A model generated the notes under the pieces. It saw only the letters and a list, made by a program, of their open reading frames with translations, did not search any database and had not been told where the DNA came from. The position numbers were made by a program, and so were the translations under genes. DNA of 64,000 bases, taken from assembly GCA_018402235.1 (NCBI GenBank), contig JAGYJJ010000004.1, positions 329,256-393,255 of the forward strand, written 5' to 3'. The DNA is from Candidatus Nanopelagicales bacterium (GTDB lineage Bacteria; Actinomycetota; Actinomycetes; S36-B12). This document shows, piece after piece, positions 7,873 through 64,000 of this stretch (position 1 is the first letter of the stretch; every line of letters starts with the position of its first letter).

Positions 7873-8872
7873 CAGGCCGCCTCACCCGAGAGAATCATTC
7901 GCATGAGGACATCTTGGCCGAGAGCCTTGGCCTCAACCACGGTGGCCGGCAAATTTAGCCGGGGGCCTTCCGGCAGCGCCCGGGGTCCAGCTCCGATCCA
8001 GACACCAGCAACAAGCCAGACCAACTCATCCACAAGCCCCGTCTCCAAGAAGGCCCGAAGCAAGGTGGGGCCACCCTCGAGCAGCACATGTCGGCTCCCG
8101 AGTGCGTACAGCTCAGCAAGTACGGCGCTCGGATCGTGGTCGCGAATCTGGGTGAAGGGAGCCGATGCATCCAAGGTCCGCGCATCCGCTGGAAGTTCCC
8201 GCTTACCCACCACAACGCGCCGGGGTTGGCCGGTCACCGGCACGTCGGCGTGACGAACCGTTAATTGTGGGTTGTCGTTGATGACCGTCTGGGTACCAAC
8301 AACGATCGCCTGTACTCGGGCACGCAACTCATGTGAATAGCGACTTGCCTCCGAGCCCGTAAGTGCCACCGGTCGTCCACCTGGTCCTGCGACTCTGCCA
8401 TCGAGGCTCACAGCGCACTTAGCCGTGACGAAGGGGCGTCCTCGAGTAGCCGCGATGGACCACTCACGATTGATGACACACGCCTGAGCTTCTCGAACTC
8501 CCCCCAACACTTCGATTTGGCCAGCACGCAGGTCCTGCGCCCCTCCCCCTGCCCTTTCCGTCGGGTCTGCTTGCGCGAAGACGACTCGAGCGATTCCAGC
8601 GTCGATCAGCGCTCGCGAACACGGACCGGTTCGTCCGTGGTGCCGGCACGGCTCCAAGGTGACCACCGCCGTAGCACCAAGCGCTCGATCGCCAGCCTGG
8701 CGAAGCGCGACTACTTCCGCATGTGGTGTTCCGGCGCCGGCATGCCACCCCTCACCAACAACGTGGCCCTGCTCGTCCACGATCAGACAGCCCACACGGG
8801 GTTGACACCCCGTGGCGCCAGGGGCTGAATCGCCAGCAACAGCGCTCGATCCATCAGCGCTTCCCAGTCCAT
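7872..8872 (-). pseudogene. ribD: bifunctional riboflavin deaminase/reductase RibD, N-terminal frameshift at 8798-8801
   Basis: The main ORF starts inside the deaminase domain (V/M)GCLIVDEQGHVVGEGWH..HAEVVAL..LEPCRHHGRTGPC. The missing N-terminus MDWEALMDRALLLAIQPLAPRGVNP lies upstream in another frame from ATG 8872. The junction is a run of 4 C (minus strand) where 5 would restore NP-RVGCLIVD. Confidence 0.85.
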
Positions 8873-47835: not shown

Positions 47836-48620
47836 GCGGCACATTGTGCCGTCGGACCGGGAAACCCTCGCCCTCGAGCGCGAATTTGGCGTCCTGAATC
47901 GACATCTCGCCAAAGTGAAAGACGCTGGCGGCCAAGACTGCGTCAGCGCCTGCGCGAACTGCCACCGGGAAATCCTCAGGGGCACCGGCTCCCCCGCTGG
48001 CGATGAGCGGCACACTCACCAGCGCCCGCACCCGTTCGATGAGTTCAGTGTCGAAACCCGAGGTGGTGCCATCGGCATCCATGGAGTTCAGCAAGACTTC
48101 CCCAGCCCCACGCTCCACGCCTTCAACCGCCCACGCCAGAGCATCGATGCCGGTCCCCTTCCGCCCTCCGTGGGTTGTCACCTCGAATCCGCTTGGAGTG
48201 GAGGTTCCCGCCGGGCAGCGCCTCGCGTCCACACTCAAGACAACACATTGCGCTCCGAAGCGCTTGCCGGCAGCAGTCAGCAACGCAGGATCGGCAATCG
48301 CTGCGGTGTTCAAACTGACCTTGTCTGCACCGGCCCGCAGGAGCCGATCGAAGTCATCAACCGAACGCACTCCCCCGCCGACTGTCAGCGGAATGAAGAC
48401 CGATTCAGCTGTCCTGCGGACAACGTCGAACGTGGTCTCGCGATTGCCTGAAGAAGCGGTGATGTCCAAGAAGACCAAGCTCATCAGCACCGTCACGGTC
48501 GTAACGCGCCGCCAGTTCCACGGGATCACCGGCATCGCGCAGACCTTCGAAGTTGACTCCCTTGACCACACGTCCAGCGTCCACATCCAGGCACGGAATA
48601 ACCCTGATGGCGAGTGTCAT
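47828..48620 (-). pseudogene. hisF: imidazole glycerol phosphate synthase cyclase subunit, frameshifted near 48475
   Basis: ORF 48405..48749 contains [48 protein letters not shown], then derails (GLLGHH). ORF 47828..48586 resumes at [19 protein letters not shown]. Removing one G from cttGGtc restores [11 protein letters not shown]. Confidence 0.9.
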
Positions 48621-51161: not shown

Positions 51162-52286
51162 CGACAACCACTGCTCCTTGACTGAGATTCGCCAACACTT
51201 CGTCGAGTGCAGTCATAAACCTAGCGTTCTCATCGGGTGTGCCGACCGATACCCGCAGCCAGCCCTGCGGGCCGGTTTCGCGGATGAGCACTCCTCGGTC
51301 CACCAGCCCCTGCCATATCGCGTGGCGATCAGCGAACACTCCGAACAGGGCGAAATTCGCATCGCTGGGGGCCACCTGCAGCCCACGCGCGCGTAGATCC
51401 ATGACGAGTGCGTCACGTTCGTGCCGCAGGATGCCCAAACCTTCCTGCAGATCGGGAGCATGGGCGATCGCCGCGCGCGCTACCGCCTGCGTCACAGATG
51501 ACAGGTGGTACGGCAATCGGACGATGCGCAACGCATCGATAACAGCCGGATGGGCGGCGGCGTAACCGAGACGAACACCTGCCATCGCGAATGCCTTACT
51601 CATGGTCCGAGTAACGATCACGTTGGCGTACTCACCTAACAGTTCGAGTGCACTCGGGACACCTTTGTGCCTGAACTCGGCATAAGCCTCATCCACCACT
51701 AGCACGGCATTTACAGCCATGCACGCGGCCGCCAACTCGGCGATATCGTCTAGATCTATGGCGGTGCCGGTCGGGTTATTAGGTGAAGCAACGAGCACGA
51801 TGCTGGGCATGTCTCGGTGAATCGCAGTAAGGGCCTCAGCAACGTCGATCGAGAAGTCTGCTTGCCGAGGAACATTCACCAAAGCGGTGAACGACTCTCG
51901 TGCATATTCGGGGTACATCGAGTAGGTAGGAGTAAACGTCAGGGCCGTTCGCCCAGGACCGCCAAAGGCGGCCATCACATGTGCCATGACCTCGTTAGAC
52001 CCATTCGCAGCCCATATCTGCTCCGCAGTCAATTCCACGCCGGATTCACTCAAAAGATAGACCGCAAGATCCCTTCTCAAGTCAAAAAGTCTCGGTCTGG
52101 ATACCGGTTGGCTTCCGACATGATTCGTTGAACCTCGGACGTAGCCGCATCGATCACGCTCACAGGAGGCGCAAAGGGGTTCTCGTTGACATTGAGTCGG
52201 ACAGCAGCGTCTAACTGTGGTGCGCCATACGGCACTTCGCCTGCAAGATCGGCACGTACCGGTGGCCGGTAACTCTCCACCGCCAT
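51154..52286 (-). pseudogene. hisC: histidinol-phosphate aminotransferase, frameshifted in T5 run at 52085-52089
   Basis: ORF 52077..52286 reads [41 protein letters not shown]...NRYPDRDFLT*. The main ORF resumes at (F)DLRRDLAVYL...ASPNNPTG...RTMSKAFAMAGVRLGY. The ATG shares one nt with the hisD stop. Confidence 0.88.
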
Positions 52287-55451: not shown

Positions 55452-58400
55452 TCACGAAAGACAGTTTGCCCCGAGCAAGGCCTTGATGTCGCCATACAGT
55501 GATGCCGATGGCGTGACACGCATCGCATCGTCAAGGCGAAGTACCGTCGTCTGTGTTCCACCCGTCAGATGTAGATGCACTTCGGTTGTTCCGGGATGTT
55601 GGCGCAACACTTCTTTCAGACGCTCTACCAAAGGCGGTACGCAGCGCGTAGCTGCTAACGACAGACGGATGGGACCACTGCTTGCACCCGAGACGTCGGG
55701 TGTTTCGACATCGATGGCAATGACGCGTAATCCGTCCTCGTCACTGCGTTCTACCCGCGCACGGACGGCAACAACGGAATCCTCAATCAACTTGGTCGAC
55801 ACCGAGGAGTACGTCTGAGGGAACACCATGACTTCGACCGAACCATCGAGGTCTTCCAACGACGCGATTGCCCACGCGGAACCCTTTTTAGTGGTCTTTC
55901 GTTGAACACTCGTGAACAAGCCTGCGATGGTGACGATTGCTGACTCGAGTGTCTCGTCGGCCAGGAGCGAAGCGATCGAACGATCAGCCAGTTGCGCTAA
56001 AGCATGCTCTAGTCCATTTAGCGGGTGATCCGAGACATACAACCCAAGCATTTCGCGCTCATGAGCCAACAGGACTGACTTCTCCCACTCCCCCACGGGA
56101 ATTGAGGTGCGCTCGGCAAGCCCCGACCCACCTTCGGGATCGTCACCTCCCAGCCCGCCGAAGAGATCGAACTGCCCGGCCGCTTCCGCTCGTTTGATGT
56201 CCACAGCCGCATCGATAACCAACTCGTGCACGGCGACGAGGCCCTTGCGGGTATGACCAAGTGAGTCGAAGGCACCGGCCTTGATGAGCGACTCCACTAC
56301 TCGCCTGTTGCACACACTGACATCAACCTTGGCGATGAAGTCACGGAAATCCGTGAACCGCCCCTTCGCTCGACGGGTGGCGATGATGGAGTCGACAACG
56401 CCCTCCCCCACGTTGCGAATGGCTGATAAGCCGAAGCGAATGTCGCTCCCCCGTGCCGTGTAGGCACCATCGGATTCGTTGACATCGGGGGGCAGCACCT
56501 TTATCCCCATGCGACGGCACTCACCGAGATAGATCGCGCTTTTGTCCTTGTCGTCCTGCACGCTCGTCAAAAGAGCGGCCATGTACTCCGCCGGATAGTT
56601 GGCCTTCAAATATGCCGTCCAATAGGACACCAATCCGTATCCGGCGGTATGAGCCTTGTTGAAGGCATAGTCGGAGAAAGGAACCAAGATGTCCCACAGT
56701 GTCTCGATAGCCGAGTCTGAGTAACCCTTCGCCCGCATCCCATCGCGAAACGGAACAAATTCTTTCTCGAGGATTTCCTTCTTCTTCTTGCCCATGGCTC
56801 GACGCAGCAGGTCCGCCTTGCCCAACGAGTAACCAGCGAGCTCTTGAGCGATTGCCATAACCTGCTCCTGATACACGATCAGGCCATAGGTATCACCAAG
56901 AATTTCCTGTAAAGGCTCCGCTAACTCAGGATGGATCGGCACAACGGGTTTGCGCCCGTTCTTGCGGTCGGCGTAGTCGTTGTGTGCGTTCGCACCCATC
57001 GGACCGGGTCGATACAGCGCAAGGACCGCCGAGATGTCCTCGAAATTGTCCGGCTGCATGGAGCGAAGAAGTGAACGCATGGGCCCACCATCAAGCTGGA
57101 AGACCCCTAAGGTGTCGCCCCGAGACAGCAACTCATACGTGGCTCGATCATCCAGCCCGATCTCTTCCAAGACAATGGTGTGCCCGGAGTTTTTCGCGAT
57201 GTTCTCTAAGCAATCGTCCAAGACCGTGAGGTTTCGCAGACCAAGGAAGTCCATCTTCAAGAGCCCTAGGGCTTCACACGCCCCCATATCGAATTGGGTG
57301 ATGATGGAACCGTCTTGTTCGCGGCGCCACACAGGAATCACATCGATCAACGGCTCACGGGAGAGAATGACTCCTGCAGCGTGAACACCTGGTTGCCTCT
57401 TCAAGCCCTCGAGCCCCTTGGCGGTGTCGATGACTTGGCGTGCCTCCTCATCCGACTCATACAAACTCCGAAAATCAGCCGCCTCGGCATAGCGGGAATC
57501 GCCAGGATCGAAAGCGCCAACGAGCGTCATATCCCTACCCATCACCGATGGGGGCATCGCCTTGGTAATCCGATCACCGAGGGCGTAGGGATATCCGAGC
57601 ACCCGAGCACTGTCCTTGACAGCTGCCTTCGCCTTGATCGACCCGTACGTGACGATCTGGGCGACACGCTCTTCACCGTAGGTCTCGGTGGCATACCGGA
57701 TCATGTCGGCACGTCGACGTTCATCAAAATCGATATCAATATCGGGCATGGAGATTCGTTCGGGGTTCAAAAACCGCTCAAACAACAGGCCGTGCTTGAT
57801 GGGGTCAAGTTCAGTAATACCCAGGGCGTACGCAATCATCGCTCCGGCTGCGGATCCGCGGCCAGGTCCGACGCGAATGCCGTTCTCTTTGGCGTATCGC
57901 ACGAGGTCCGCTACCACCAGGAAGTACCCGGGAAAACCCATCTGTGCAATAACACCTAGTTCGTAGTCGGCCTGGGTTTGCACGTTGGCGGGCACTGCGT
58001 CGTGGAACCTACGACGTAGACCTTTCTCAACTTCCGTCCGCAACCAGGAGTCCTCTGTTTCACCTTCGGGCACGGGGAAGCGCGGCATCAAGTTCGCACC
58101 TTCATCGAAAGTGACGTCGCATCGTTCAGCGATAAGCAAGGTGTTGTCGCAGGCTTCTGGCAGTTCCGACCATACGGACCGCATCTCCTGCGCTGACTTG
58201 ACGTAGAAATCTCGGGCATCGAAACGAAAACGTTTGGGATCATCCATCGTGGTTCGGGTCCCCACACACAGCAAAACTTCGTGGGTGTCTGCATCACTTG
58301 CGTGCACGTAATGCAAATCATTGGTAGCCACCAAGGGAAGGTCCAGATCCTTGGCGATCTTCAACAAGTCGTCGCGGAAGCGTTGTTCGATGGCCAGGCC

Positions 58401-58994
58401 GTGGTCCATAAGTTCGGCGAAATAGTTGCCCGGGCCGAGAATGTCGCGAAAATCCGCAGCCGCAGCCCTTGCCTTGTCGAATTCGCCGGCTTGCAACCAG
58501 CGGTTCACCTCCCCGCTGGGGCACCCGGTAGTTCCTATCAAGCCCTTGCCGTAGCGATCCAGGAGCTCCCGATCGAAGCGCGGTTTGTGGTAGTACCCCT
58601 CAAGGCTGGCCAGCGACGACAGTCGGAACAGGTTGTGCATGCCCACGGTGGTCTCAGCCCACAGGGTCATATGCGTGTAACTGTGCTTGCCCCGCCCCGC
58701 CCCTGGATCCTCCGGGGTTCCTTCGTCGAATCCACCACCGAAATCAAATGGACGCCGCTCGGTGCGACCCTGTGGTGCGTAATACCCCTCCAATCCGATG
58801 ATCGGCTTGATACCCGCCGCACGCGCTCGGCTGTAGAAGTCGTAGGCCCCGTAAAGGTTTCCGTGATCGGTCATGGCGATCGCGGGCATTCCAAGCCGGA
58901 CGGCTTCCCCGATCAGATCATCGAGCCGGGCGGCCCCATCGAGCATCGAGTACTCAGTATGAACATGCAGGTGTACGAAGTTGTTATCGCTCAT
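55452..58994 (-). CDS. dnaE: DNA polymerase III alpha subunit
   Basis: 1180 aa, FVHLHVHTEYSMLDGA (PHP domain) followed by the polymerase core. Intact. Confidence 0.98.
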   Translation of the reverse strand: MSDNNFVHLHVHTEYSMLDGAARLDDLIGEAVRLGMPAIAMTDHGNLYGAYDFYSRARAAGIKPIIGLEGYYAPQGRTERRPFDFGGGFDEGTPEDPGAGRGKHSYTHMTLWAETTVGMHNLFRLSSLASLEGYYHKPRFDRELLDRYGKGLIGTTGCPSGEVNRWLQAGEFDKARAAAADFRDILGPGNYFAELMDHGLAIEQRFRDDLLKIAKDLDLPLVATNDLHYVHASDADTHEVLLCVGTRTTMDDPKRFRFDARDFYVKSAQEMRSVWSELPEACDNTLLIAERCDVTFDEGANLMPRFPVPEGETEDSWLRTEVEKGLRRRFHDAVPANVQTQADYELGVIAQMGFPGYFLVVADLVRYAKENGIRVGPGRGSAAGAMIAYALGITELDPIKHGLLFERFLNPERISMPDIDIDFDERRRADMIRYATETYGEERVAQIVTYGSIKAKAAVKDSARVLGYPYALGDRITKAMPPSVMGRDMTLVGAFDPGDSRYAEAADFRSLYESDEEARQVIDTAKGLEGLKRQPGVHAAGVILSREPLIDVIPVWRREQDGSIITQFDMGACEALGLLKMDFLGLRNLTVLDDCLENIAKNSGHTIVLEEIGLDDRATYELLSRGDTLGVFQLDGGPMRSLLRSMQPDNFEDISAVLALYRPGPMGANAHNDYADRKNGRKPVVPIHPELAEPLQEILGDTYGLIVYQEQVMAIAQELAGYSLGKADLLRRAMGKKKKEILEKEFVPFRDGMRAKGYSDSAIETLWDILVPFSDYAFNKAHTAGYGLVSYWTAYLKANYPAEYMAALLTSVQDDKDKSAIYLGECRRMGIKVLPPDVNESDGAYTARGSDIRFGLSAIRNVGEGVVDSIIATRRAKGRFTDFRDFIAKVDVSVCNRRVVESLIKAGAFDSLGHTRKGLVAVHELVIDAAVDIKRAEAAGQFDLFGGLGGDDPEGGSGLAERTSIPVGEWEKSVLLAHEREMLGLYVSDHPLNGLEHALAQLADRSIASLLADETLESAIVTIAGLFTSVQRKTTKKGSAWAIASLEDLDGSVEVMVFPQTYSSVSTKLIEDSVVAVRARVERSDEDGLRVIAIDVETPDVSGASSGPIRLSLAATRCVPPLVERLKEVLRQHPGTTEVHLHLTGGTQTTVLRLDDAMRVTPSASLYGDIKALLGANCLS

Positions 58995-59097: not shown

Positions 59098-60018
59098 TCA
59101 GTTCGACAGGCCGGAGCGCAGCTTCGTGAGGGCGTGGTGGAGGTCCGATGGGTAGGAGCTTTCGACATTGACCCGCTCACCAGTTCGCGGATGCTCGAAC
59201 CCCAGACGCCTCGCATGCAACCACTGCCTCTGCAGTCCCAATTCACGGGCAACGATGGGATCGGCTCCGTAGGTCAGGTCCCCCACGCAGGGGTGGCGCA
59301 TGGCAGCCATATGCACTCGGATCTGGTGCGTTCGGCCAGTTTCCAGATGGACCTCCACCAGCGAAGCCCGCGGCCACGCCTCCAGAGTTTCGTAATGCGT
59401 GACGCTCGGCCTTCCCGAATGCACCACTGCCCATTTGTAGTCCTTGGACGGATGCCTATCTATTGGCGCATCGATGGTCCCGACGAGTGGATCGAGTAAG
59501 CCGTGAACCACGGCGTGATACTCCTTATCCACCGAACGCTCCTTGAATTGGCGTTTCAGCGAGGTATAGGCCTCGGGAGTCTTCGCGACGACCATGGCAC
59601 CCGTGGTACCAACATCGAGGCGATGCACGATTCCCTCACGCTCGGCAGCGCCCGATGTGGTCAGCAAGTGCCCGGAGGCGGCCAATGATCCGGTGACCGT
59701 CGGGCCCGACCACCCAGGGCTTGGGTGCGCAGCAACACCCACGGGCTTATCAATGACGACGATCTGGTCGTCTTCCAGCAGAATCGGCAACGCGGCGACA
59801 GGCTCCTCGACCGACTGAGGCGAAACCGGCTCATCTACGTCGATCACCTCATTGATGGTTAGCCGGTGCGACTTGGCCACCGTTTCGCCACCGATTCTCA
59901 CGAGTCCGGCATCGATAAAGGAACTCGCCTGAGCGCGCGAAAGCCCCAGCATTCGACCTAGCGCCACGTCCAGACGCTCACCGACAAGGCCGTCGGGAAC
60001 TGGGTACACGCGGCTCAC
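59098..60018 (-). CDS. rluD: RluA-family 23S rRNA pseudouridine synthase (RluD-like)
   Basis: S4 domain (RLDVALGRMLGLSRAQASSFI) plus the catalytic motif HRLDVGTTGAMVVAK. The GTG overlaps the lspA stop (GTGA). Confidence 0.92.
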   Translation of the reverse strand: MSRVYPVPDGLVGERLDVALGRMLGLSRAQASSFIDAGLVRIGGETVAKSHRLTINEVIDVDEPVSPQSVEEPVAALPILLEDDQIVVIDKPVGVAAHPSPGWSGPTVTGSLAASGHLLTTSGAAEREGIVHRLDVGTTGAMVVAKTPEAYTSLKRQFKERSVDKEYHAVVHGLLDPLVGTIDAPIDRHPSKDYKWAVVHSGRPSVTHYETLEAWPRASLVEVHLETGRTHQIRVHMAAMRHPCVGDLTYGADPIVARELGLQRQWLHARRLGFEHPRTGERVNVESSYPSDLHHALTKLRSGLSN

Positions 60019-60569
60019 GCCACGTCGTCCCGACTCTCGCGGGGGTCACTTTCGACATCGTCGGCTTCCTCGGCGGACAACGGCACGCCCTTCCACGCCA
60101 ACGCCACCATAGCTATCGCCGAGAAGGTGATCGACATGTCCGCAACATTGAAGATGGGAAAATTGGGTAATCCAATGAAATCCACCACCGAACCCATGCC
60201 CGGAGATGGAGGTCGCGTGATCCGGTCGATGAGATTGCCGAGCAGACCCCCCAGGAGTCCGCCGAGGGCTAGCGCCCAGCCCACCGATGAGATGGATCGT
60301 GCAACGCGAAGTATGACGAACCCCACCACGATCGCAACAATCGTAAACACCCAGGTGTACCCGGCACCGACACCGAAGGCCGCCCCCGAGTTCTCGGTGT
60401 ACGTCAGCCGCAAGAGCGGCCCAAGGAGGTAAATCGGCCCTTCCCCAGCAGAGATTCGCGGTTCCATGACCGCAACCGCCCAAGCCTTGGTGAGCTGATC
60501 GACGACAACCACTGCGGCTGCCGTTCCGCCCAGGACTGCGAGCACGCGCCCATGCAGACCGACAATCAC
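60015..60569 (-). CDS. lspA: signal peptidase II
   Basis: VVVVDQLTKAWAV...LTYTENSGAAFG...VVDFIGLPNFPIFNVADMSI. Start at GTG 60569. The 427-aa ORF-track entry is a chimera that runs through the upstream gene. Confidence 0.9.
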   Translation of the reverse strand: MIVGLHGRVLAVLGGTAAAVVVVDQLTKAWAVAVMEPRISAGEGPIYLLGPLLRLTYTENSGAAFGVGAGYTWVFTIVAIVVGFVILRVARSISSVGWALALGGLLGGLLGNLIDRITRPPSPGMGSVVDFIGLPNFPIFNVADMSITFSAIAMVALAWKGVPLSAEEADDVESDPRESRDDVA

Positions 60570-60603
60570 GAGCGACAGCCTAAGTCGAACACCAAAAGGG
60601 GCG

Positions 60604-60987
60604 TCAGTAGCGCTCCTCGGCCTCCTTGCAGGACCGACACAAAGTTGCACGGGGAAAGGCCTGCAGTCGGTACTTGCCGATCGGCTTCCCACACGACTCA
60701 CACACGCCATACGTACCATCGTCGATTCTGCCAAGTGCGTGCTCCACCTGCTCGAGCATGTCCCGCGCGTTGTTCGCCAAAGACATTTCATGCTCACGCT
60801 CGAACGTCTTGCTGCCCGCATCGGCCTGGTCATCTCCAGCTCCATCGCCGGAGTCACGTATAAGGTCCGCCAAACCTTCTTCGGCCGTGGCAATCTCCTC
60901 AAGCAGACGGTCCTTCTCCGAAAGAAGCTCCCGACGAACATCGCGCAATTCCTGATTGGTCCACGGCGACTCATCCTCCCGAACCAC
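60604..60987 (-). CDS. TraR/DksA-family C4 zinc-finger protein (core; probable longer N-terminus, see repeat)
   Basis: 127 aa, ESPWTNQELRDVRRELL..(coiled coil)..DDGTYGVCESCGKPIGKYRLQAFPRATLCRSCKE. The Lys-rich sequence AKKSAPAKKAPAKKSALAKQVAKAKKRP continues upstream in the same frame without any start codon. Confidence 0.85.
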   Translation of the reverse strand: MVREDESPWTNQELRDVRRELLSEKDRLLEEIATAEEGLADLIRDSGDGAGDDQADAGSKTFEREHEMSLANNARDMLEQVEHALGRIDDGTYGVCESCGKPIGKYRLQAFPRATLCRSCKEAEERY

Positions 60988-61017
60988 CGGACGCTTCTTG
61001 GCTTTAGCGACCTGCTT

Positions 61018-61245
61018 GGCCAGCGCGCTCTTCTTCGCCGGCGCCTTCTTGGCCGGCGCGCTCTTCTTCGCGCGGCGCCTTCTTGGCCGGCGCGCTCTTC
61101 TTCGCGGGCGCCTTCTTGGCCGGCGCGCTCTTCTTCGCCGGCGCCTTCTTGGCCGGCGCGCTCTTCTTCGCGGGCGCCTTCTTGGCCGGCGCGCTCTTCT
61201 TCGCGGGCGCCTTCTGGCCGGCGCGCTCTTCTTCGCGGGCGCCTT
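61018..61245. repeat. about 7 copies of a 33-bp tandem repeat encoding KKAPAKKSAPA
   Basis: The unit is ggccggcgcgctcttcttcgc[c/g]ggcgccttctt. Units start at 61018, 61051 (34 nt), 61085, 61118, 61151, 61184 (32 nt) and 61216 (30 nt). Confidence 0.95.
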
Positions 61246-61419
61246 GGCTTGGCGCTAGCCGGCGCGCTCTTCTTGGTCGGCATTTTCGCCCCCCTCATCG
61301 ACTCGCTACCGGTTCTCCTGCCCGGTGGCGCTTGCGAATGCTAGGCCCGTCGTCGATGCCACGGGTGACCGGCACGCCGACGGCGCGAGGCTATCCTGCC
61401 CGTTCGGACAGGAGGCGCC

Positions 61420-64000
61420 ATGTATCAGCCCGTGCCCGCGCAGATCGATCTGCCGGCCATGGAGCATCGGATTCTGCAATTGTGGGACAGCGAATCGGTG
61501 TTCAAGCGCTCCGTCAGCCAGGCGAGTGGGCGTCCATTGTGGACTTTCTATGAGGGTCCGCCGACTGCTAACGGCACCCCGGGTGCCCATCACGTCGAGG
61601 CCCGCGTCTTTAAGGACATCTTTCCTCGCTACCGCACCATGAAGGGGTACTTCGTTCCCCGCCAAGCAGGCTGGGACTGCCATGGCCTGCCGGTGGAATT
61701 GGCAGTGGAACGCGAACTCGGCTTCAGCGGTAAGCAGGACATCGAGGAATATGGAATCGCGGAATTCAATGCCAAGTGCCGCGAATCCGTACTCCGACAC
61801 GTCGATGAGTTCACGCAGATGAGCGAGCGCATGGGTTTTTGGGTCGACACCGACGCTGCCTACTGGACGATGAACCCCGAGTACATCGAAAGCGTCTGGT
61901 GGTCGCTGAAAACCATTTTTGACAAGGGGCTTTTGGTTCAAGACCATCGCGTAGCCCCGTACTGCCCACGGTGCGGTACGGGACTGAGCGATCACGAGTT
62001 GGCGCAGGGATACGAGACGGTGGTGGACCCATCGGTATACGTGCGCTTTCCAGTCACCTCCGGAACCTTGGTCGAACGCTTCCCCGGGATCTCATTGCTT
62101 GTGTGGACGACAACCCCGTGGACGCTGGTTTCAAATACGGCGGTAGCGGTGAAGCCCGACGCCACGTACGCAGTGGTTCGGGCCGCCAGTGAGACCCTCA
62201 TCGTTGCCGAGGAACTCATCGAACACGTTTTCCCGGATGCGACCGTAGAAATCCTCGAACGCTTCTTGGGGAAGGAACTGGAGCGGACCGGGTATGCGCG
62301 GCCATTCGAATTGATCGACATTCCCGACGCTCACTTCGTGATCCTGGCCGACTACGTCACGACCGACGACGGAACCGGTCTGGTGCACCAGGCGCCTGCT
62401 TTCGGTGCCGACGACTTGGTGAGCTGTCGGGCCTACGGCTTACCGGTGGTAAATCCGATCGCCGCAGATGGACACTTCATCGACTCGGTCCCGCTGGTGG
62501 GTGGACAGTTCTTCAAGAAGGCCGACGAGACCTTGACGCAGGACCTCAAGGATCGCGGGCTGCTGTTTCGCCGAGACCCGTACGAACACGCCTACCCCCA
62601 TTGTTGGCGATGCCACACTCCACTTCTTTACTACGCACAACCATCCTGGTACATCAAGACCACGGCGAAAAAGGATGAGCTGCTAGAGCAAAACGAACGC
62701 ACGAACTGGTATCCCCCGAACATTAAATGGGGACGCTACGGCGATTGGTTGACCAACAACGTCGACTGGGCACTTTCGCGGAATCGTTATTGGGGGACCC
62801 CCCTACCAATTTGGCGCTGCCCCGACGAGCATCTAACGGCTATCGGTTCACTAACCGAGTTGTCCGAACTGTCCGGCACCGACGTCAGTGCAGTAGATCC
62901 CCACCGCCCCTACGTGGACGACATCACGATCACGTGCCCTACCTGCCACCAGGAGGCCAGGCGGGTCCCCGAGGTGATCGACTGCTGGTACGACTCCGGT
63001 GCCATGCCTTTCGCAGCGTTGGGGTACCCCCACCAAAATGTCGACTCCTTCCACGAGCGCTACCCAGCCGACTTCATCTGTGAGGCAATCGACCAAACAC
63101 GCGGATGGTTCTACTCGCTCATGGCTATCGGGACGCTCGTTTTCGACCAGTCTTCCTACAAGAATGTGGTCTGCTTGGGCCACATACTTGATGAAGATGG
63201 TCGCAAAATGAGTAAGCACCTGGGCAACGTGCTTGAGCCCATTCCACTGATGGATGATCACGGTGCCGATGCGGTTCGCTGGTTCATGTTGGCATCCGGA
63301 TCACCTTGGCAAGCCCGACGCGTTGGACATAGTGCCATTGCTGATGTGGTTCGACGGACACTTCTCACGTACTGGAACACCGTGTCTTTTCAGTCTCTGT
63401 ATGCCCGAACTGCCGGGTGGCAACCAACCGATGGCGCGCCTCCGATCAAAGACCGACCACTCATTGATCAGTGGCTACTTTCGGAATCTCACCGTCTCGC
63501 CCGCGATGTGGACGATGCACTCGAGAATTTCGACACTCAGCGCGGCGGGCGGATTCTTTCGGCGTTCATCGACGATCTGTCGAACTGGTACGTACGACGA
63601 TCACGTCGACGCTTCTGGGATGGGGATCCGGCTGCGTTGGCGACGCTGCATGAGGCGCTGCGCATCGTGACGTTGTGCATGGCGCCCTACACACCCTTCA
63701 TCACCGAGCAGGTCTGGCAGGACCTCTTTCGCTCCACCGACGTGGATGCGCCGGAGTCCGTCCACCTGGCTTCCTGGCCGGCCGCTGATCCCGAAGTGAT
63801 CGACCCCCAACTGAGCGAGCAGATGGCCTTGACTCGTCGAGTGGTTGAACTCGGTAGAGCGGCTCGCGCCAGCAGCAGTGTTCGCACTCGCCAACCCCTA
63901 GGGCGTGCGTTGATCTCTGCTCCTGGGTGGTCGGATCTGCCATCCGAACTCGTCACCGAGGTCGCCGAGGAACTCAACGTTCGATCAGTGGAGCCCCTCG
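61420..64000 (+). CDS. ileS: isoleucine--tRNA ligase, 3' end beyond window
   Basis: Not in the ORF track (open to the window edge). My translation from ATG 61420 (GGAGG 5 nt upstream) gives MYQPVPAQIDLPAMEHRILQLWDSESVFKRS...PPTANGTPGAHHV...GWDCHGLPVE...EDGRKMSKHLGN...; 860 codons with no stop. Confidence 0.95.
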   Translation, partial: MYQPVPAQIDLPAMEHRILQLWDSESVFKRSVSQASGRPLWTFYEGPPTANGTPGAHHVEARVFKDIFPRYRTMKGYFVPRQAGWDCHGLPVELAVERELGFSGKQDIEEYGIAEFNAKCRESVLRHVDEFTQMSERMGFWVDTDAAYWTMNPEYIESVWWSLKTIFDKGLLVQDHRVAPYCPRCGTGLSDHELAQGYETVVDPSVYVRFPVTSGTLVERFPGISLLVWTTTPWTLVSNTAVAVKPDATYAVVRAASETLIVAEELIEHVFPDATVEILERFLGKELERTGYARPFELIDIPDAHFVILADYVTTDDGTGLVHQAPAFGADDLVSCRAYGLPVVNPIAADGHFIDSVPLVGGQFFKKADETLTQDLKDRGLLFRRDPYEHAYPHCWRCHTPLLYYAQPSWYIKTTAKKDELLEQNERTNWYPPNIKWGRYGDWLTNNVDWALSRNRYWGTPLPIWRCPDEHLTAIGSLTELSELSGTDVSAVDPHRPYVDDITITCPTCHQEARRVPEVIDCWYDSGAMPFAALGYPHQNVDSFHERYPADFICEAIDQTRGWFYSLMAIGTLVFDQSSYKNVVCLGHILDEDGRKMSKHLGNVLEPIPLMDDHGADAVRWFMLASGSPWQARRVGHSAIADVVRRTLLTYWNTVSFQSLYARTAGWQPTDGAPPIKDRPLIDQWLLSESHRLARDVDDALENFDTQRGGRILSAFIDDLSNWYVRRSRRRFWDGDPAALATLHEALRIVTLCMAPYTPFITEQVWQDLFRSTDVDAPESVHLASWPAADPEVIDPQLSEQMALTRRVVELGRAARASSSVRTRQPLGRALISAPGWSDLPSELVTEVAEELNVRSVEPL

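Follow-up and report, generated by a model that had tools for sequence, protein, structure and literature searches.

A DdbA-type gene with a tandemly repeated, histone H1-like N-terminal tail, probably split by long-read consensus errors, in a Nanopelagicales contig

We analyzed a 64,000-nucleotide stretch of a Candidatus Nanopelagicales contig (hereafter, the window), which carries near its end a minus-strand gene with a DksA-like core. The next gene on the 3′ side is lspA, encoding signal peptidase II (60015..60572, minus; PF01252, E = 2.7e-31), which is syntenic in relatives. It is followed by a gene for an rluD-type pseudouridine synthase (59098..60018, minus; PF00849 and S4, supported by tblastn) and, beyond that gene on the downstream side, by dnaE (55452-58994). 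On the opposite flank, ileS is transcribed divergently (61420..64000, plus) and runs off the end of the window; it was identified by tblastn with residues 1-860 of IleS from a related locus, L081 (89% identity). A promoter scan found no sigma-70-like promoter in the 136-nt divergent intergenic region between the two genes (61284-61419), and Rfam gave no matches either in this region or in the window, including no T-box leader for ileS. The gene order in relatives reads ftsZ, ylmD, ylmE, sepF, yggT, divIVA, ileS (on the opposite strand), the counterpart of the present gene, lspA, rluD, and dnaE. In the window itself, which ends inside ileS, the flanks seen are ileS, lspA, rluD, and dnaE, and the full ftsZ-to-divIVA block was seen in the relatives.

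The core ORF (60604-60987), read from GTG 60987, encodes 127 amino acids that match the Pfam family PF01258 (zf-dskA_traR, E = 6.8e-13) and the DksA-family PDB chains 6ptg, 4ijj, and 1tjl. The DksA-like core as a whole, stop codon included, occupies 60604..60990 on the minus strand and comprises a coiled coil and a C4 zinc finger. In a phmmer comparison with 1tjl_A, the coiled-coil tip, D53-Q-A-D56 in the numbering of the 127-aa ORF (60820..60831, minus), corresponds to D71-P-V-D74 of E. coli DksA, and the zinc finger, CxxC-x17-CxxC (60610..60717, minus), lies in the Pfam-matched stretch of residues 91-126, with the cysteines of E. coli DksA aligned. The protein thus has the D-x-x-D tip and the zinc finger in common with E. 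coli DksA (PDB 1TJL; PF01258), but has G where DksA has A76 and, after repair of the reading frame described below, a 97-aa basic N-terminal extension. Its scores fall under the cut-offs of the NCBIfam DksA equivalogs (NF033459, 72 bits versus 105; TIGR02420, 63 versus 115.5), which by sequence places it in the DksA/TraR family as a member of the DdbA type rather than as a canonical DksA.

Directly upstream of the core, the DNA encodes a Lys/Ala/Pro-rich, H1-like N-terminal tail (60991..61283, minus), which is spread over three frames as assembled. The tail begins with an ATG (61281..61283, minus) opening MPTKKSAPASAKP, and a Shine-Dalgarno-like GAGGGGGG (61289..61296, minus), read directly from the sequence, lies 5 nt 5′ of this codon. 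Tandem Repeats Finder delimited a 33-bp tandem array encoding KKAPAKKSAPA (61011..61245, minus; 7.1 copies, 96% match, score 426), a regularity far beyond chance. Terminator-like matches inside the array were rejected as repeat artefacts. With a fixed anchor as reference, the unit lengths come to 32, 33, 33, 33, 34, and 33 nt, and the KKAPAKKSAPA reading passes through all three frames as assembled. It is interrupted by three breaks on the minus strand. At the first (61245..61246), where the ATG frame gives way to the core frame, GCCAAGCCAAGGCG is short by one base (or, alternatively, carries two extra). Unit dissection placed the second at 61214..61215, where one A of an AA run is missing from a 32-nt unit (GGCCAGAAGG in place of GGCCAAGAAGG), and the third at ~61073, where a 34-nt unit has an extra base (GCGCCGCGCG versus GCGCCSGCG). 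The third break falls exactly on the sole polymorphic position of the unit, its CCC/CCG Pro codon reading CCGC, and one of the three is a probable loss of C from a CC(C) run. An earlier reading of the window made from the letters alone (the sequence-only reading) had given the coordinates and counts of the start, the array, the three breaks, and GTG 60987, all of them correctly, as judged by the sequence, Tandem Repeats Finder, and unit dissection. Repairing the three sites yielded a single 226-aa ORF, in which a 97-aa tail (K34 A33 P16 S9) with zero stop codons and zero degenerate units joins ...AKKSALAKQVAKAKKRPVVREDESPWT. The repaired protein gave weak matches to histone H1-like families of NCBIfam, under their cut-offs.

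With the core as query, a protein search gave 6754 homologues, and we drew their properties from the best 120. Most of these 120 are 195-240 aa long and share the same Lys/Ala/Pro-rich N-terminus, and many of them carry precomputed PF01258 together with PF07382 (HC2, histone H1-like). P0001 is the closest of them, with 98% identity over the 143-aa core query and 90% over the repaired protein. It comprises 202 aa, opens MPTKKTAPAKKAPVKK (MPTKKTAPAKK), and has in common with the window protein the unique junction AKKSALAKQVAKA(K/R)KRPVVRED. P0003, P0004, and P0006 also open MPTKK. In the 166 related loci that we compared, in-frame Lys/Ala/Pro-rich N-termini were the rule, extending from Nanopelagicales-type MAGs to Angustibacter, Knoellia, Kribbella, and Streptomyces. 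The length and N-terminus of the homologues and the prevalence of in-frame tails show that the Lys-rich tail belongs to the protein, as the sequence-only reading had argued; that reading had also called for a search of homologues for similar tails. In two of the loci, L024 and L079, no Lys-rich tail was found 5′ of the core in any frame, which may make them true tail-less variants. Directly 5′ of the L024 core lies a DivIVA-like coding region.

Because the nearest homologues open MPTKK and are 195-240 aa long, we take ATG 61283 to be the true start of the gene. By the same alignments, GTG 60987 is an internal Val codon of the RPVVRED motif, which is conserved inside full-length homologues, and not a start. 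The assembled sequence taken at face value would allow another reading, in which the breaks are genuine, leaving either a recent pseudogene or a gene reduced to a tail-less 127-aa DksA-like protein initiated at GTG 60987. The core frame is open back to a TAG at ~61257, and no ATG, GTG, or TTG is found in this open stretch 5′ of GTG 60987 as assembled. Gene callers, moreover, give 126-127-aa products among the homologues (P0081, P0109, and P0120), and the lack of a Lys-rich tail in L024 and L079 would make a tail-less form viable in some lineages. However, GTG 60987 falls within RPVVRED and no Shine-Dalgarno sequence lies 5′ of it, and the 126-127-aa calls that we examined all have a full tail upstream. 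This tail is divided between frames in L163 and L164 and broken by an N gap in the short-read scaffold L165, whereas L166, which carries the same gene as L165, has it intact. The repaired tail, free of stop codons and degenerate units, also speaks against decay, as does the core, for which we found a dN/dS of ~0.015 relative to L081 and L082, the next relatives after P0001. The non-synonymous distance of the core to these two loci, both intact, is not larger than the distance between them. The core is therefore under strong purifying selection with no relaxation, and the gene shows no decay. We consider a pseudogene or a tail-less protein unlikely.

Three additional genes in the window carry 1-bp frameshifts. 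A self-trained codon-score scan was noisy but flagged hisC, hisF, and ribD, each of which was then confirmed singly; a GC3 frame plot gave a signal too weak for frame tracing at 60% GC. In ribD (8800-8830, minus), the frameshift is located near the 5′ end, where AACCCCGTG has C4. A C5 at this site would restore ...MDRALLLA...GVNPRVGCLIVDEQG (GVNPRVGCLIV), and, as assembled, the first ~33 well-scoring codons of the ORF lack a start codon. A 1-bp indel (GATGAGCTTGGTCTTC) splits hisF (48530-48560, minus), leaving the N-terminal 48 aa in a different frame from the rest; positions 1-46 of Pfam His_biosynth match the N-terminal piece and positions 45-227 the main ORF. In hisC (52080-52095, minus), a 1-bp deletion lies beside a T5 run (GACTTTTTGACTTGA), and residues 1-66 and 65-375 of the intact 375-aa HisC from L081 map to two frames of the window. 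All three frameshifts occur in or next to short base runs and are of the same kind as the breaks in the array, and the remaining genes compared by tblastn in the 50.6-64 kb region are all intact. If the frameshifts in ribD, hisF, and hisC were genuine, a free-living actinobacterium would recently have lost the integrity of ~7% of its genes within 64 kb, a further point against the pseudogene.

We then compared tail integrity with assembly type in the relatives. Among the 166 loci, frame-split tails occurred in 8 of 13 loci on contigs with Flye-style names (contig_N, hundreds of kb long) and in 0 of the 112 short-read or isolate loci whose upstream sequence extended for 500 nt or more (Fisher p = 1.1e-9). 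The split-tail loci are six of the 11 Microflora Danica (MFD) bins (L018, L023, L045, L056, L058, and L064) together with L163 and L164, and the positions of the breaks vary among the affected long-read loci. For such contigs, gene callers give 126-127-aa proteins that lack the tail, P0109 and P0120 among them. MFD MAGs are Nanopore-only and were assembled with Flye followed by one round of Medaka polishing (PMC12313526). In good assemblies, the rate of indels in the arrays of relatives was 0%. Short-read assemblies were affected in another way, with contigs ending 150-320 nt 5′ of the core, that is, inside the array (L003, L006, L010, L019, L089, L104, L115, and ~30 more); contigs as long as 48-270 kb were among those terminated there. 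The array is hard to assemble and regularly breaks short-read assemblies. No same-species contig was recovered in our scans of genome and metagenome contigs, and L081 and L082 are only ~77% identical to the window at the DNA level; base-level comparison of the array was thus impossible, and we used tblastn at the protein level instead.

The break types (an A lost from AA, a C probably lost from CC(C), and an extra base at the polymorphic site) fit repeat-misaligned reads. On the basis of these types, the other 1-bp frameshifts in the window, the restriction of split tails to long-read assemblies, and the absence of gene decay, we regard the three 1-bp breaks as very probably long-read (Nanopore-type) consensus errors, made in a GC-rich tandem repeat, rather than properties of the genome. 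The sequence-only reading had treated them as potential biology, a view at odds with the like indels in ribD, hisF, and hisC and with the occurrence of split tails in relatives only in Nanopore-type assemblies. Three breaks within 235 bp represent a far higher rate than the background of ~3 in 64 kb, so the explanation by consensus errors requires the repeat to be specially error-prone, a property that the assemblies of relatives support and that this assembly would have to share.

The sequence-only reading had also suggested that variation in repeat number or frame could act as an on/off switch. Under such a model, the array would be a contingency locus in which slippage shifts the frame, so that the tail or the entire protein is turned on or off. 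Its near-perfect tandem structure would suit this role, as would the differences in unit number and unit type among close relatives, yet a phase-variable tract would be a homopolymer or have a unit whose length is not divisible by three, whereas the unit here is 33 bp. A change in copy number therefore cannot shift the frame, and slippage alters the length of the tail instead. That reading had recommended a comparison of repeat copy number among strains. In the relatives compared here, tail length, unit number, and unit type do vary between close relatives, but the dominant array periods (15, 18, 30, 33, 45, 48, and 90 nt) are all multiples of three and the frame is kept. Furthermore, the observed breaks are single-base changes and not changes in units, and none of the 112 short-read or isolate assemblies has a frame-split tail. 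A contingency locus is therefore extremely unlikely, and concerted evolution of the usual kind in a low-complexity domain accounts for the variation in tail length and unit type.

The alternative frames of the array differ in what they encode. Its +1 frame (61073-61215, minus, the core frame) reads as an Arg-rich basic peptide, RRRPRRRARRP, and its +2 frame as an acidic peptide, EEGAREEERAGQ. A compensated pair of frameshifts in the array would leave the tail basic, and such frameshifts might be tolerated. One could accordingly propose that the breaks are real and that the Lys array (AAG AAG GCG CCN GCG) is a frameshift-tolerant module, since its +1 frame is basic. We hold this to be very unlikely; if it were true, indels in the tail would give Lys/Arg mosaic tails or tail-off variants in natural populations. 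Programmed ribosomal frameshifting, or an intended use of the alternative frame, would likewise draw on the Arg-rich peptide that the core frame encodes between the second and third breaks, which could bind DNA. It would demand three separate shifts of differing sign, however, and would leave the net shift from the ATG frame to the core frame uncompensated. The relatives have no slippery site in common with the window, and the scatter of break positions among the affected long-read loci likewise disfavors a programmed event, making this proposal scarcely credible.

With the breaks read as consensus errors, the locus in all likelihood represents one gene of ~226 codons from ATG 61283, orthologous by sequence and position to ddbA (SCO2075) of Streptomyces. 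In S. coelicolor, DdbA joins an H1-like, Lys-rich N-terminus to a C-terminus resembling DksA (Aldridge et al. 2013, NAR 41:4813; PMC3643593). It keeps the equivalents of DksA D71/D74 and four cysteines, and its tail shows BLAST similarity to HupS and Hc2 (PMC3643593). The window protein likewise has both a C4 zinc finger and the D71/D74 equivalents in its DksA-like domain, and its basic, Lys-rich, H1-like segment becomes contiguous with the core only after the three 1-bp repairs. The locus belongs near ftsZ, in the dcw/divIVA-ileS block, at a position orthologous to SCO2075. Like ddbA, the gene lies between the ftsZ-divIVA-ileS block on its upstream side and lspA and rluD on its downstream side, and three Streptomyces loci have the same flanks, with ileS upstream and lspA and rluD downstream. 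Counting genes from ftsZ, which is SCO2082 (PMC3643593), in the contigs of relatives leads to the position of SCO2075 for the ddbA-type gene. The Streptomyces orthologues are 62-65% identical to the window protein in the core.

The sequence-only reading had drawn attention to the fusion. The architecture is not new, being that published as DdbA (PMC3643593), and most of the best homologues listed among the 6754 have it. The same 2013 study demonstrated by EMSA that the N-terminal domain of DdbA binds DNA and, with the use of AFM, that the protein condenses DNA in vitro (PMC3643593). In a ddbA null mutant, nucleoid condensation and the supercoiling response were both changed, and overexpression of ddbA suppressed the conditional antibiotic-production defect of relA mutants (PMC3643593). 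Nucleoid tethering, which the sequence-only reading had predicted for a secondary-channel factor bearing a PAKKA-type tail, was also already proposed there for DdbA, for which orthologues were reported in streptomycetes only (PMC3643593). Our comparison modestly extends that work, in that the DdbA architecture, regarded as streptomycete-specific in 2013, is found across Actinomycetes at a conserved locus.

By analogy with DdbA, the window protein is a putative nucleoid-associated transcription factor. Its 97-residue tail is histone H1-like in composition and probably disordered, and it may bind and condense DNA non-specifically; the H1/HupB-like, DNA-binding type that the sequence-only reading had assigned to the tail agrees with this prediction. 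The C-terminal ~125 residues are predicted to form a DksA-like coiled coil, with both tip aspartates, and the C4 zinc finger, and this part would enter the secondary channel of RNA polymerase as DksA does. A young in-frame tandem array encodes the tail, and such arrays in DdbA-type genes grow and shrink by whole units. The tail shares low-complexity, basic PAKKA-type repeats, a DNA-binding type, with the Lys/Ala/Pro-rich tails of the actinobacterial HU proteins HupB/Hlp and HupS and with chlamydial Hc2, in keeping with the PF07382 (HC2) annotation of homologues, but the present tail differs from HU proteins in being N-terminal and attached to a DksA-like domain rather than to an HU fold. It also differs from the tail of DdbA, which is less regular, 93 aa long, and contains five S/T-A/T-A-K-K pentapeptides, whereas the 97 aa of the window tail form a near-perfect array of 11-residue (33-bp) KKAPAKKSAPA units. 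Unlike S. coelicolor, the host is an uncultured, non-sporulating, aquatic-type actinobacterium, and the developmental roles of DdbA are therefore not simply transferable to it.

The value of the case is practical rather than biological, and it implies no new mechanism. Long-read metagenome assemblies are especially prone to 1-bp consensus errors in GC-rich tandem arrays that encode Lys/Ala/Pro, and short-read assemblies tend to break into separate contigs at such arrays. Gene calling at DdbA-type loci consequently often yields either a tail-less ‘DksA’ protein of 126-127 aa or a long nonsense ORF.

One further gene in the window resembles a start-site anomaly of another sort. At infC (IF-3; 1269-1901, minus), which is followed by rpmI and rplT, the expected start shows no ATG, GTG, or TTG. 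An unusual AUU-type start codon is usual for infC, and the start observed here fits a codon of that type, not a frameshift.
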